Shown here: positions 2,938 to 34,604 of the stretch, piece by piece
Position numbering within the stretch: position 1 is the first letter of the stretch
How the letters are laid out: each line of letters opens with the position of its first letter
Source: a virus
Taxonomy: Duplodnaviria > Caudoviricetes
DNA length: 36,134 nt
Reading direction: 5' to 3' (one strand)
IMG/VR virus record: IMGVR_UViG_3300032257_000060
Location: 1-36,134 of that record
Notes under the pieces: generated by a model
The model's database searches: none
Told to the model about the DNA's origin: nothing
Seen by the model: the letters and a program-made list of their open reading frames with translations, nothing else
Program-made: the position numbers and the translations under genes

Positions 2938-3242
2938 AGGTTCAAAGCTGGCCAAGCAGAAAAGGCGCTGCAACTCATTACGAGGTTGATTATAGTGTAT
3001 TAGTTGGAAGATTAGGTACAACTGTTTCAACCGTAACATGGAGCGTGGAAAGCGGAAGCGCCACAATTTCAGGCGAAACACTAGCAAGCGGCGTAGCTTC
3101 AGCGCTAATAACAACCGGATCAGAAGACTGCTCTCTTATTAAGCTAGAGGCAGTATTGGCAGACGGTCAAACAGACGTGTTCTTCTTTAAGATAAAGACA
3201 GAAGACCCAAAATGTGTGCAAAGTACAGCAGGGAGATATTAA
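2934..3242 (+). CDS. Putative fibre/adaptor protein (beta-rich)
   Basis: YEVDYS...TVSTVTWSV pattern seen in phage adaptor-like proteins upstream of terminases. Confidence 0.55.
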   Translation: MKVQSWPSRKGAATHYEVDYSVLVGRLGTTVSTVTWSVESGSATISGETLASGVASALITTGSEDCSLIKLEAVLADGQTDVFFFKIKTEDPKCVQSTAGRY

Positions 3243-3249
3243 TCTAACC

Positions 3250-4404
3250 ATGTACAAATACAAAATGATTAATACGAGCGAATTAAATGGTTATAAAAAT
3301 AATGCCAGGACACACTCGCCTGAGCAAGTAAAACAGATTGCCAGTTCTATCAATGAATTTGGCTTTACTAATCCACTATTAATCAACGATAAGAAAACCA
3401 TTATTGCAGGCCATGGCAGAATAGAGGCTGCACTAACATTGGGAATGGATAAAATTCCTTGCATAATAGTAACAAATCTTACGCTCGACCAAGAGAAAGC
3501 ATTAATCATTGCCGACAATCAACTAGCATTAAACGCAGGGTGGGATTTAGATATACTCAAAGCTGAAATTGACGACTTAAGGCTAAACGATTTCGACGTT
3601 GAGCTATTAGGGTTTGATGATGACTTTATAACCGACCTGCTACAGCCAGAGCCAACAGAAGGGCTAACCGATGAGGATGCTGTTCCTGAAGTGCCAGAAG
3701 AGCCAGTAACCGCGTTAGGCGATATATGGGAGCTAGGTAACCATAGATTAATGTGTGGTGACTCTACCAGTATTGACGCTGTTGAAAAATTAATGGATGG
3801 CGTATATCCCGATTTAATACACACCGATCCTCCGTATGGGATGAATGCTGTCACAAAAAGTGGCGTATTATCAAAGAGCTACAAAACAGATATTATTGGC
3901 GATGATAACACTGATATAGCTAAAGACGCTTTTCGCCTTATAAACGGGATGTATCCTGAATCAAAACAAATATGGTGGGGCGCCAATTATTACTGCTCTG
4001 TTCTGCCTGATAGCGAGTGCTGGCTAGTGTGGGATAAAAACAACGGGCAAAGCGATCAAACTGATTGCGAGCTAGCTTGGGCTAATTTCAGGAGTGTTGT
4101 GGGGCAATTCACGCAAGCAAGCGAAAAAACAAACAGAGTTCATCCAACTCAAAAGCCTGTGTCGTTAATGGAATGGATAATTAAAAGATTCAAATTGTCA
4201 TCAAGTACGATAGCTGATTACTTTGGTGGCAGTGGGTCGACATTGATGGCTGCAGAGAAAAACAATACCAAATCATTTAATATGGAGTACGATCCGAGGT
4301 TCTGCGATGTAATAATCAACAGATGGCAAGATTACACTGGACGTCTAGCCATCCATACGGCTACAGGCAAAACATATTCGGAGTTAAAGAATGACAAAGA
4401 ATAA
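3250..4404 (+). CDS. ParB/Srx N-terminal domain fused to a beta-class N6-A/N4-C DNA methyltransferase
   Basis: NARTHS..QV.QIA.SI.EFGFTNP, IAGHGR, ADN.LA (ParB); HRLMCGDST, TDPPYG, HPTQKP, DYFGGSGST (MTase); start moved to ATG 3250. Confidence 0.92.
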   Translation: MYKYKMINTSELNGYKNNARTHSPEQVKQIASSINEFGFTNPLLINDKKTIIAGHGRIEAALTLGMDKIPCIIVTNLTLDQEKALIIADNQLALNAGWDLDILKAEIDDLRLNDFDVELLGFDDDFITDLLQPEPTEGLTDEDAVPEVPEEPVTALGDIWELGNHRLMCGDSTSIDAVEKLMDGVYPDLIHTDPPYGMNAVTKSGVLSKSYKTDIIGDDNTDIAKDAFRLINGMYPESKQIWWGANYYCSVLPDSECWLVWDKNNGQSDQTDCELAWANFRSVVGQFTQASEKTNRVHPTQKPVSLMEWIIKRFKLSSSTIADYFGGSGSTLMAAEKNNTKSFNMEYDPRFCDVIINRWQDYTGRLAIHTATGKTYSELKNDKE

Positions 4405-27466: not shown

Positions 27467-28021
27467 ATGAAACCAAATAATAAAGGTGTGATAAACCAAG
27501 AAAATCTGATGTCTTTGCTGCACTATAATAAGGTCACCGGAGTGTTTACATGGAGAAAACGTGACGCATCCTTGTTTGCATCAGCACAAGCAGAGAGGAT
27601 GTGGAATAAACGCTACGCAGGGAAGGAGGCAGGAACAGTCCGTCAAGAACCTGGCGGCTATAGGGTTATTCTTATAAATGGAAGAAAATACATGGCTCAT
27701 CGTTTGGCGTGGATGTATGAGTATGGCAAGATTCCAGAAGGGTGTATAGATCACATCAATTGCAATAAATTGGATAATAATATATCAAATCTTCGTGAGT
27801 GTACTATGTCAGAAAACCTAATGAACTCCAAATTAATGCGCGGAACTATGTCTGGGATAAAAGGGGTGCATTTACACAAGCCATCCGGAAGATGGCAGGC
27901 GAGACTTAGGTATGACGGAAAGAATAGGCATGTTGGTAGTTATGGCACAAAAGAGGAGGCGAAAAATGCAATTATTGCCAAGAGAAATGAGGTTCACGGG
28001 GAGTTCGCCAGACATGAGTAA
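27467..28021 (+). CDS. HNH homing endonuclease with an AP2-like domain
   Basis: AHRLAW...IDHINCNKLDNNISNLRE; SGIKGVHL...RWQARL...HGEFAR. Confidence 0.92.
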   Translation: MKPNNKGVINQENLMSLLHYNKVTGVFTWRKRDASLFASAQAERMWNKRYAGKEAGTVRQEPGGYRVILINGRKYMAHRLAWMYEYGKIPEGCIDHINCNKLDNNISNLRECTMSENLMNSKLMRGTMSGIKGVHLHKPSGRWQARLRYDGKNRHVGSYGTKEEAKNAIIAKRNEVHGEFARHE

Positions 28022-28584: not shown

Positions 28585-28897
28585 CGCAACAACAGACAGC
28601 ACAGGCAATATGCTTTACTCAGTCAACACAAGTGGCAAGTTTAGAGCGAGGCAATTAACATCTAAAACTATTGGCGTATGGGATTATGTGTTACCCGGTA
28701 AATCAAAAACCGTTCAATTAGTCACATTACTAGGTGATTCAGCCTATGACCTGCTGGCTAGACACATTCACGAAAGCGAGAAAATACCACTAGGCGCAAC
28801 GGTTAATATTAATCGCTCAAGCCGAGTCGTTGAAATCAAGGTTAAGCAAAACAAGCGAGACTATCGATTATTCTCAGGCGCGATATATAGGAAGTGA
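28571..28897 (+). CDS. Hypothetical protein
   Basis: GGAGGT SD before ATG 28571. Confidence 0.65.
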   Translation: MTTANATTDSTGNMLYSVNTSGKFRARQLTSKTIGVWDYVLPGKSKTVQLVTLLGDSAYDLLARHIHESEKIPLGATVNINRSSRVVEIKVKQNKRDYRLFSGAIYRK

Positions 28898-28925
28898 TAT
28901 GAGCAAAATAGCGGGAGGTAAAATA

Positions 28926-29933
28926 ATGCCAGAGGATAAATCAATGAACGTACTAGATTTGTTCTCTGGTATTTGACTCGGAGGCTTCGCATTAGCATCA
29001 CATCCACATGGATTTAAAACAGCAGCATTCTGTGAATACGACAAAGACGCCCAAGCAGTATTGAAAAAGCGATTTCCAGAAGTGCCAATAATTAACGATA
29101 TTAAGGAGTTAGTGTTTTGCCTAGAACATCTAAAAGAAAATCAGATGCTGCCAGAGAAAATCAAAAAAAAGCTGTTGCAGCGAGAGTTAAGAATGGAAAT
29201 GTTGAGTGCGTCTGCAAAAACTGTGGCAAGCAGTTCAACACACCAAAAAGCTACATTGCAAAAGGTGGCGGAAAATTCTGCTCTAACAACTGTCGATATG
29301 TTTTCAAGCGAGGAGACAACGGAGCAAACGCAGGGGGTGGGGCATGGATGCTCGGAGAAAATAACCCCAATTATATTGACGGCAAATCCTCAGAGCGGAA
29401 AGAAGGGCGCGTTAGATACGCAAAAGAACTCAACCAATGGAGAAGAAGGGTTTACGCAAGAGATGGATACCAGTGCCAGGAGTGCGGAATCAAGCCAAGA
29501 AAACAAGGGCAGCTTAACGCCCATCACATCAAGCACTGGGCAACGCACGAATCGTTGCGATTCGATATTAACAACGGAATTACAGTCTGTATTGACTGTC
29601 ACAAAGCAATTCATGCAAGGGGGAATTGATGTCGTCACAGGAGGGTTTCCATGCCAGCCAGCTTCAGTTGCTGGGGCAAGAAAAGGAAGGGAAGATGAGC
29701 GATGGCTCTGGAATGAGATGTTTAGAGTTATACAAATTGCACGTCCAAAATGGGTTATCGGAGAAAATGTATCTGGGCTTATCACGGTTGATGAAGGGCT
29801 GGCATTCGAGAATGTGTGTCTTGACCTGGAAAGAGAAGGTTACACCGTACAAACGCTTATTATTCCAGCTTGTGCCAAAGACGCGCACCACAGAAGAGAC
29901 AGGGTTTGGATTATTGCCCACACCAACATCTAG
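28926..29933 (+). CDS. C5-cytosine DNA methyltransferase, N-terminal (alpha) part with motifs I-VIII; in-frame TGA at 28974 and a ~170-codon insert
   Basis: GGAGGT SD then MPEDKSMNVLDLFSGI*LGGFALA...FCEYD...NDIKEL-[insert]-IDVVTGGFPCQPASVAG...DERWLW...VIGENVSG...HRRDRVWIIA. Confidence 0.85.
29117..29629 (+). CDS. HNH endonuclease with a Zn-ribbon, nested in an alternate frame of the MTase
   Basis: CKNCGKQF...KFCSNNC, GENNPNY, WRRRVYARDGYQCQECG...LNAHHIK...FDINNGITVCIDCHKAIH; AAGGAG SD 8 nt before TTG. Confidence 0.9.
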   Translation: MPRTSKRKSDAARENQKKAVAARVKNGNVECVCKNCGKQFNTPKSYIAKGGGKFCSNNCRYVFKRGDNGANAGGGAWMLGENNPNYIDGKSSERKEGRVRYAKELNQWRRRVYARDGYQCQECGIKPRKQGQLNAHHIKHWATHESLRFDINNGITVCIDCHKAIHARGN

Positions 29934-30423
29934 TGACGGCACATCGGGCGGAGTTATTGGAAAAAATGACACATATTATCAAACATCTGGACTGCCAAGA
30001 AAGATAACGCAAAACGGTGTTGATGGATCGGTTGGACTAGGCAGGCTTGTGCAAATGTGGCCAACACCTAACGCCGGAGACGATAGAGACAGAGGAAATC
30101 TGTCAAATCCTTGTATTCAAAGGCGAAAGGAAATTGGCAAGCAAATCATGTTGAGCCAGTGTGTTAGTGAAGAATCAGGCAGATTAAACCCAGATTGGGT
30201 CGAGCCTCTAATGGGCTATCCAGTCGGCTGGACTGATTTAGAAAAGGATAATGTAACGCATGAGATAACTGAGTTTGTTGGTAATCCTGACGATTCAGGC
30301 GAGCCAAGAGTAACAACTAGATCCGACTTAAGAGCCAAACGACTTAAGCAGCTTGGAAACTCAATAGTTCCACAGGTGGCCAGCGAGATATTTAAAGCAA
30401 TCAGGAGCATAGAAGATGAATAA
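29629..30423 (+). CDS. C5-MTase C-terminal (beta) part: target-recognition region and motifs IX-X
   Basis: LLPTP and WPTP repeats, GRLNPDWVEPLMGYPVGWT, RLKQLGNSIVPQVA; ATG overlaps the HNH stop (TGATG). Confidence 0.85.
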   Translation: MSSQEGFHASQLQLLGQEKEGKMSDGSGMRCLELYKLHVQNGLSEKMYLGLSRLMKGWHSRMCVLTWKEKVTPYKRLLFQLVPKTRTTEETGFGLLPTPTSSDGTSGGVIGKNDTYYQTSGLPRKITQNGVDGSVGLGRLVQMWPTPNAGDDRDRGNLSNPCIQRRKEIGKQIMLSQCVSEESGRLNPDWVEPLMGYPVGWTDLEKDNVTHEITEFVGNPDDSGEPRVTTRSDLRAKRLKQLGNSIVPQVASEIFKAIRSIEDE

Positions 30424-33963: not shown

Positions 33964-34001
33964 AACATGCTTATTGGTAATAATAGCTAAAGGTGATAGT
34001 T

Positions 34002-34604
34002 ATGAAAAATTGCATCAAATGCAACACTAGAAAAAAAGAAGAGCAATTCCACAAAGACAGCAGAAGGCCTGACGGTTTATTCCCATACTGCAAAAAATGC
34101 AGGCAAATACCAAGGAAGCCCGCAAAGTGCAGGCCGATTAAAGAAGTTCTTTCTAACTATAGAGTTGCAGAAAACGAGTGTTGGGAATGGAGTGGAACGC
34201 TTGACATAGATGGATATGGCGTTGCCTGCTTCAAGGGGGAGCGGCAAAAAGCCCATAGGCTTAGTTTTTCACACCATGTTGAACCAATTAAGCAGGGCCT
34301 AATTATATGTCACAAATGCGACAATCCTTCCTGTATAAATCCAAATCACTTGTACCAAGGAACAAGCCAAGACAACACTAACGACATGATAGCAAGAAAA
34401 AGGCAAAATCCGCCCATAGGAGAAAGGTCTGGCAATGCGGTTTTGGAAATAGAGCAAGTAAGAGCGATAAAGCACGACCCAAGAAGGCATAATAAAATCG
34501 CTATGGATTACGGAATAGCGGCATCCACTGTAAGTAGCATTAAGACTGGCAGAAACTGGTCGCGCGCATTAGGTGAGGCTGATAGAAATGCGAAAGCAAT
34601 TTAA
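34002..34604 (+). CDS. HNH endonuclease with a Zn-finger N-terminus and HTH C-terminus
   Basis: CIKC...FHKD...CKKC; CWEWSG..DGYG...AHRLSF...CHKCDNPSCINPNHL.QGT..DN.NDM. Confidence 0.92.
   Translation: MKNCIKCNTRKKEEQFHKDSRRPDGLFPYCKKCRQIPRKPAKCRPIKEVLSNYRVAENECWEWSGTLDIDGYGVACFKGERQKAHRLSFSHHVEPIKQGLIICHKCDNPSCINPNHLYQGTSQDNTNDMIARKRQNPPIGERSGNAVLEIEQVRAIKHDPRRHNKIAMDYGIAASTVSSIKTGRNWSRALGEADRNAKAI

Follow-up and report, generated by a model that had tools for sequence, protein, structure and literature searches.

The stretch of DNA considered here, below called the window, is an entire virus record of 36,134 bases that has 42% GC and a terminal repeat of 127 bases. It belongs to a podophage, was recovered from a microbial-mat metagenome and encodes a P22-like portal, a terminase, ERF and YqaJ (Pfam search). 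Its plus strand contains, at 28926..29933, the alpha frame of a C5 DNA methyltransferase, 335 codons with motifs I-VIII (Pfam PF00145, E 1.6e-33; PHROG 363), which begins with an ATG at 28926 and is closed by a TAG that ends at 29933. The Shine-Dalgarno sequence of this gene (GGGAGGT, 28913-19) and its start codon are located within 28911..28928, as recognized from the sequence and from comparison with the cassette-bearing loci L092 and L100. An RNA hairpin of 18 base pairs occupies 28925..28973; its 5' arm (28925-42) consists of the AUG and the codons next to it, its loop covers 28943-55, and its 3' arm (28956-73) ends with the codon for the Ile of FSGI, in motif I. Directly after the hairpin, at 28974..28979, the six bases TGA CTC divide motif I (FSGI|GGF), and they form a putative coding gap, given that 14 other genes have gaps of five or six bases at the same site.

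Between motifs III and IV, in the variable loop of the methylase, the frame is overprinted by the gene for a 170-aa nuclease with a zinc finger and an HNH domain (29117..29629, plus strand; Pfam PF01844, E 1.2e-8; PHROG 1271, E 4e-19), for which the nearest solved structure is 5H0M (E 1.8e-5). This gene starts with TTG, has the Shine-Dalgarno sequence AAGGAG (29103..29108) eight nucleotides upstream, built from the I-K-E codons of the methylase, and ends with a TGA built from the I-D codons (ATT GAT) of motif IV. The first ATG of the methyltransferase beta frame (29629..30423, plus strand; PHROG 1008, E 2.7e-28), which holds the variable region and the C-terminal motifs, overlaps the HNH stop (TGATG), and the beta frame overlaps the last ~100 alpha codons, so that the window displays a two-frame C5 methyltransferase with its second subunit in an overlapping frame. 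On the minus strand, an antisense ORF of 131 codons (29390-29785) extends across the HNH gene and motif IV, and is probably a by-product of dual coding. No sigma-70 promoter was found in 28800-29700. Elsewhere in the window there are two free-standing HNH genes (27467-28021 and 33993-34604; HNH_3, one with AP2), the +1 frames of which have 10 and 15 stops, and a second methylase (3214-4404), with a ParB-like domain and an N6/N4 methylase, directly upstream of the terminase gene.

The six bases in motif I mean that codon 17 of the alpha frame is a TGA (28974-76), and that the frame reads FSGI*LGGF, six bases longer than FSGIGGF. The first-pass annotation had foreseen a plain alpha product of ~335 aa; this can not be upheld, since the frame is not open from its start and the TGA requires recoding. 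An alternative genetic code was ruled out, as 9 of the 24 ORFs checked terminate in TGA. The same TGA occurs in a contig of run X1, which may itself be the source of this DNA; in run X2, positions 28976-83 are uncovered.

Genes with a similar interruption were found only with loose patterns, the exact TGA-CTN and GAY/TGA forms of motif I giving no match each in viral contigs. A scan with a six-base wildcard at motif I gave 34 matches with 7 methylases, a five-base wildcard 22 matches with 10 methylases, and a wildcard of 1-15 bases 50 matches with 14 methylases, all 14 with a gap of five or six bases. Together with the window, the class comprises 15 distinct genes, eight with a five-base and seven with a six-base gap, which are in part non-independent (L084/L109; L092/L100/L103/L147). 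The gap begins with a stop codon (TAG or TGA) in all eight five-base and in three of the seven six-base cases, i.e., in 11 of 15, and its last base is a pyrimidine in 15/15. The first gap triplet has the form Y-N-R in all seven six-base genes with DNA seen. Among related cassettes both the sequence and the length of the gap vary (CGGCTT, TTAGTC, CTAGTT, TAGCC). The frame downstream of the gap is intact in 13 of the 14 genes where this could be assessed, including seven of the eight in which the gap breaks the frame; the exception, L124, has decayed, its frame breaking 72 codons downstream of the gap, and L092 is cut by the end of its contig. Grouping the gap genes in one clade was rejected (AU p 2e-46; 8 changes) in a test on 51 of 81 rows, namely the full set of 20 special rows and alternate plain rows, and the genes are scattered over the methylase tree. 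The in-frame TGA of the window does not, therefore, look like a private lesion.

A corresponding class is seen in proteins. When one stop-free form was used as query, the best 120 of 7,437 matches, in a ranking that favours the query's own LV, contained 59 with two extra residues in motif I, 55 with none, 3 with one and 3 that were left unparsed. In these 59 clusters with FSGI-xx-GGF, among the best 120 of 7,437, the first added position is taken by L, R, P or Q, the second by V, L or I, and the PC and EN motifs are intact. Three among the proteins P0020-P0139, two of them with cassette-like leaders, have a single extra Ile (FSGI-I-GGF), which by its sequence is possibly a three-base form of the gap. 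A different place in the family is affected in L253, a C5 methylase on the reverse strand of its contig, where a stop-first six-base insert separates the catalytic Pro and Cys codons of motif IV and makes up a second gap site in C5 methylases; in a marine phage (L308, KT997847.1, 1013-1849), the annotation divides a C5 methylase near motif IV into two genes. The hairpin-gap cassette was not encountered in any cultured phage or plasmid, one set of matches having been judged without motif I DNA. In the literature covered, mostly open-access main texts, no description of a motif I gap was found, and the available parts of PMC5009743 and PMC4351075 do not describe it.

The hairpin belongs to the gap. 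In the window its fold has a z-score of -4.3, and none of 200 shuffles is equally stable. Pairing of at least 9 out of 10 bases between start codon and motif I is found in 12 of the 15 gap genes and in 4 of 98 controls (p 1.5e-10), the controls being uninterrupted genes with the same motif context, drawn from 120 of ~170 matches. When the hairpins are aligned, 89% of the cells pair, to be compared with 31-49% in slid registers; two-sided changes occur in only 2 of the 11 pairs, with no excess over shuffles (86/500). One gene, L123, lacks an ATG at the start of the hairpin. Since the conserved leader M-[PSL]-E is also an arm of the hairpin, the roles of leader peptide and hairpin are inseparable by sequence.

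So does the nuclease gene. Of 14 gap genes, 9 have an HNH-type motif no more than 380 nt upstream, as against 1 of 94 controls. Profiles support an HNH assignment for seven of these nine upstream genes; L103 is plainly homologous to L100, L179 is without assignment, and the genes belong to at least three nuclease families. In L092, L100 and L103 the HNH protein starts with the old start of the methylase, DLFSG, followed by Y, from which follows that the element broke motif I and supplied the methylase with a new start. In the window no HNH gene is present upstream of the gap. The window bases 28911..28928, 18 in all, are identical to the HNH end (codons R-E-V-K-stop) plus start codon in L092 and L100, and this identity likely marks the relic of a lost upstream endonuclease cassette. 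Across unrelated phage methylases, the gap, the hairpin from AUG to Ile and the neighbouring HNH gene thus occur together.

To see how such a gene could be expressed, consider a ribosome that initiates at 28926. It would stall with Ile-tRNA on AUU (take-off ATT, 28971-73) and with its A site occupied by UGA. Refolding of the hairpin behind the ribosome would then drive a forward movement of six bases, the Ile-tRNA would re-pair loosely at CUC (landing CTC, 28977-79), and decoding would restart at GGA, by which FSGIGGF is restored. After the hop the 171 codons of the HNH overlap would be read, to yield an alpha product, predicted at 333 aa, with a poorly ordered loop, which would join the beta product. 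A single process could in this way serve the five- and the six-base gaps, with stop or sense codons alike: Ile-tRNA would leave AUU, move by five or six bases, land on the gap's final triplet and continue at GGN. The gap itself may once have shielded motif I from the upstream HNH nuclease that is lost in the window. That ribosomes hop over the six bases is, judged from such sequence comparisons, somewhat better than an even bet.

Landing is the weak point of the hop. In the window, CUC mismatches the take-off codon AUU at the first base; only one of the 15 landing triplets is an Ile codon (ATC, in L137), and four of the 15 mismatch at the second base (GCC, ACC twice, ACT). Many stop-free six-base forms, moreover, require no recoding, and although their second extra residue is always V, L or I among the best 120 of 7,437, selection at the level of protein would give the same. 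Transcriptional slippage was judged less likely, since C is often the last base of the landing triplet where take-off is at ATT, a combination that agrees with tRNA wobble and not with an RNA-DNA hybrid. Initiation at UUG after the hairpin was dropped, since this codon is not in frame in the window and the TAG forms lack it.

The main rival to the hop is that the two extra residues in motif I are tolerated. The HNH overlap would be read through as before, the TGA would be passed by readthrough, the five-base forms would be expressed by a -1 shift to give I-L-x-GG, and the hairpin would only tune initiation. This has in its favour the intact PC and EN motifs of the 59 clusters just described, among the best 120 of 7,437, that the common LV form is the expected output of a -1 shift on ATT TAG TY, and that the AUG is covered by the hairpin. 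It does, however, demand three mechanisms for one conserved element, and a -1 slip would move the Ile-tRNA from AUU to CAU, where it matches poorly. The first extra position, furthermore, with L, R, P, Q or stop, is alike in nucleotides (Y-N-R) but dissimilar in chemistry, and in C5 methylases an insertion of two residues in the FxGxGG cofactor loop is likely harmful. Tolerance is for these reasons unlikely, with perhaps one chance in a handful.

It is less probable still that the methylase of the window is dead or silenced, so that the TGA simply terminates translation and the open frame beneath the HNH gene is an inheritance from an ancestor that expressed it. A stop codon within the most conserved motif is what this would predict, orphan phage methylases are dispensable according to the available sections of PMC11855218, L124 has in fact decayed, and the six relatives with an HNH gene at the same internal site, described below, all have a plain motif I of FSGIGG type. 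Against it stands that the hairpin of the window is still perfect over its 18 pairs, that both the alpha and the beta frame are kept intact, that the overlap has zero stops, and that 13 of 14 gap genes, among them seven of the eight frame-breaking ones, are intact downstream, all over the tree.

The second insertion is the HNH gene between motifs III and IV. The first-pass annotation described it as a complete HNH gene within the methylase frame, with about 170 extra stop-free codons between NDIKEL and IDVVTGGFPCQ, and both observations hold: the nuclease ORF is whole, and 171 codons separate the two motifs without a single stop. The methylase frame is +1 relative to the HNH frame. When the HNH protein is recoded with the phage's own codon usage, this frame acquires on average 6.2 stops, and is free of stops in 5 of 40,000 trials; with the third-base bias of the HNH gene itself the mean is 9.2 stops, and none of 20,000 trials is free of them. 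Elsewhere in the phage the longest stop-free run in a +1 frame, over 30 other genes, is 68 codons. The earlier argument that so long a shadow frame is improbable in AT-rich DNA in the absence of selection is accordingly right about selection and wrong about composition, as the genome has 42% and the HNH gene 45% GC, i.e., the DNA is only mildly AT-rich. The codon shuffling proposed as a check has a similarly divided outcome, in that the recoding nulls reject chance and shuffles restricted to the codons already present in the HNH gene do not reach significance (P 0.33 and 0.42). The latter is so because codon choice is the signal, the risky codons having been dropped from the gene: none of its 20 Ile, Leu and Val codons ends in TA, and 23 of its 41 four-fold codons end in A. 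The HNH gene, with its own ribosome-binding site, thus avoids codon pairs that would create stops in the host frame, and these comparisons support the view that selection preserves the open host frame beneath it.

When viral contigs, metagenomes and genomes were scanned with four aligned HNH proteins (27, 43 and 2 loci, respectively), eight distinct loci with close relatives of the HNH gene were identified besides the window; a previous scan with a single protein had given 5 distant loci, none in a methylase. Six of the eight lie inside a C5 methylase at the site used in the window (L008, identical to L040, L009, L035, L036, L038 and L113). Their HNH proteins are 43-49% identical to that of the window and 44-61% identical to each other, except for L008 and L036 with 81%. 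Cultured phages gave 40 HNH matches, all below 60% identity and none annotated under a methylase. In the host frame of the six invaded relatives there are zero stops, with 5.1-7.8 expected, and the check that homologous insertions preserve the frame therefore comes out in favour of the original suggestion: 7 of 7 invaded loci, the window included, have no stop, where 5.1-9.2 are expected in each. The other two loci serve as controls from within the nuclease family. In L039, where the HNH gene lies just upstream of an intact methylase, the corresponding frame has 10 stops, and in L007 (identical to L037), where it lies outside a methylase, 17. All six non-invaded loci analysed have 4-20 stops, with 4.4-16.9 expected; of the 20 loci in this set, L007 was treated by hand and six others, all of them non-invaded, were omitted. 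Five more distant HNH genes also have stop numbers as expected.

With the insertion, the motifs of the host frame lie considerably further apart. From FxG to PC the distance has a median of 65 and a range of 60-126 in 88 uninterrupted genes, as against 221-239 in the six invaded relatives, and the uninvaded genes already differ by ~60 residues in this distance. Motif III and the HNH start are separated by 17, 20, 59 or 62 nt, and the frame relation is nonetheless kept. The HNH stop is 19 bases before the PCQ codons in the window, L035, L036, L038 and L113, the five loci whose junction is of the standard form and was parsed; in L009 the distance is 31, and L008 was left unparsed. About 60 bases before the HNH start, L008, L009, L035 and L113 have an additional in-frame spacer, which the window and L038 lack. 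Within this spacer, a TATAAT-like box, seen by eye in L008, L009 and L035, could be an internal HNH promoter. In L008, L035, L036 and L113 the beta ATG precedes the HNH stop, so that none of the three forward frames is closed within the last 10-20 HNH codons.

The first-pass annotation further held that the methylase tolerates the insert as a disordered loop rich in S, T and Q. The structural part is borne out by an AlphaFold model of an invaded relative, L113 (alignment of 60 rows), with pLDDT 83-95 for residues 1-60 and 82-98 for residues 241-335, i.e., 82-98 over the core, and mostly 32-70 in the insert; the model supports the reading that the methylase core folds and that the insert encoded by the overlap forms a poorly ordered loop. 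The composition, in turn, is a property of the window and not of the family, Ser making up 3-6% of the overlap in five of the six relatives. No PHROG family and no homologues were found for the overlap peptide. At four-fold sites, pairs of invaded loci are identical in 44% and other pairs in 31% of cases, the invaded pairs being also closer and A-rich. A single clade for the seven invaded methylases was not rejected (AU p 0.89; 51 of 81 rows), and the earlier proposal of active homing is left without backing from the tree. The internal HNH gene is inferred to be a homing-type element that may persist without splicing since the host gene survives it.

All this is in keeping with the HNH overlap being read through, unspliced, wherever the methylase is made, which is quite probable. 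It has been considered, as a poor competitor, that the internal nuclease is the methylase's cognate restriction enzyme, or a toxin, nested in a frame that stays open because the methylase is the antidote. Strong selection on a normally dispensable gene would be accounted for, L039 has the same HNH family directly upstream of an intact methylase, and the invaded hosts may be one clade; still, L007 carries the family without a methylase motif, though on a contig that ends just past the HNH gene, and more distant HNH relatives adjoin varied non-methylase genes. That the HNH region is spliced out, or that alpha consists of two fragments, the second re-initiated at the ATG within MQGGIDVV, is very improbable: the window and L038 do have an ATG in frame, a few codons ahead of motif IV, but five of the seven invaded loci have none, neither route needs an open frame, and, as the first-pass annotation had noted, there is no sign of an intein (no Hint domain in a Pfam profile search) or of a group I or II catalytic core (no Rfam intron match), for which the HNH ORF, filling nearly the whole insertion, leaves no room.

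Taken together, the slightly favoured reading is that the methylase carries two separate insertions, both likely from selfish nucleases: a frame-shifted HNH gene, and a stop-first gap that ribosomes likely hop. The overprint is genuine, and nothing out of the ordinary among elements of its kind. The principle of an open host frame under a selfish gene is already published, and what is added here is statistics, and inside-versus-outside controls from one nuclease family, for selection holding the frame open, in another class of methylase. The motif I gap is the new and weightier part, its anatomy being apparent and the hop likely. To our knowledge, very few systems of programmed bypassing exist. 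It is an even proposition that C5-methylase genes across many hosts share a mobile, HNH-driven cassette which leaves a gap of five or six bases, passed by a programmed +5 or +6 hop that the hairpin between start and take-off promotes and that needs no matched landing codon; this would be, in minimal form and next to T4 gene 60, the second natural system that combines an endonuclease with bypassing, and the enzyme of the window would combine a hop, a dual-coded read-through of 171 codons and a second overlapping subunit. The cassette, of ~70 bases, occurs in natural variants that differ in the length of the gap, in its first codon and in the triplet for landing, and could test whether an upstream hairpin alone pushes the ribosome forward and how close a codon match landing requires. 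Phage methylase genes interrupted by a stop or a frameshift, and now taken for pseudogenes, may also turn out to be expressed.

The first-pass annotation had presented the overprint as a homing strategy distinct from introns, inteins and gene splitting. The strategy is not new: hidden, out-of-frame HNH genes in mycobacteriophage methylases have been described by Arsenault, Gosselin and Gogarten in 2025 (PMC11855218), the ShiLan-type insert having first been reported by Gosselin in 2023 (PMC9957025). Shared with the window are an HNH ORF inside a methylase in another frame, a stop-free host frame (7/7 loci here), and the lack of an intein or intron signature in profile searches (Pfam, Rfam). 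In contrast, ShiLan gp65 and Pacc40 gp60 are N6/N4 methylases (PF01555) and the window has a C5 enzyme (PF00145), and since the methylase class differs the insertion site is not homologous. Of the ShiLan HNH protein only the N-terminal zinc-finger part aligns with that of the window (residues 27-90; 33% over 64 aa, E 2e-7), and the Pacc40 HNH protein does not match it. The ShiLan and Pacc40 genes have 63% GC, the HNH genes of the window family 38-55%, and the window HNH gene has a Shine-Dalgarno sequence, whereas leaderless starts have been proposed for the ShiLan type (PMC11855218). By these sequence criteria the insertion in the window is of the same kind as the ShiLan element, with an apparently separate origin. 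A second C5 subunit in another frame that overlaps the alpha gene is known from M.EcoHK31I, where (as described in PMC2836561) motif X remains in alpha and the whole of beta is contained in alpha; in the window alpha ends after motif VIII, and the C-terminal motif is in the beta frame.

The hop over the motif I gap has its parallels in the terminase of Streptomyces phage Hau3 and in T4 mobA/gene 60. Bypass in Hau3 is triggered by the UUA codon, rare in Streptomyces (Antonov et al. 2023, PMC10732093, in the reference list of which the +5/+6 hops of Weiss 1987 are cited); the motif I gaps mostly begin with stops, occur in many hosts and are tied to HNH genes. In T4, where bypass is proven, and not inferred from sequence as for the motif I cassette, the gap has 50 nt and the host gene encodes a topoisomerase, as compared with five or six nt in a C5 methylase. 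Gene 60 also has matched take-off and landing codons; in the cassette the take-off codon is Ile and most landing triplets are unmatched, only 13-17 codons precede take-off, and the stem pairs with the start codon itself. The 5' stem-loop is conserved, with weak two-sided covariation, and linkage to a mobile endonuclease is patchy on the tree, with an 18-base relic in the window. The gap of mobA/gene 60 blocks self-cleavage, outlives the loss of the nuclease, and can have a stop or a slow codon first (Manning and Atkins 2022, 10.1101/2022.08.31.505936; Wills et al. 2024, 10.1101/2024.12.09.627546). The two systems are alike in that a gap with a stop or a slow codon first is found in a conserved gene behind a 5' stem-loop, in that an adjoining HNH gene splits the host gene and gives it a new start, and in that the endonuclease family is exchangeable and sometimes lost while the gap remains.
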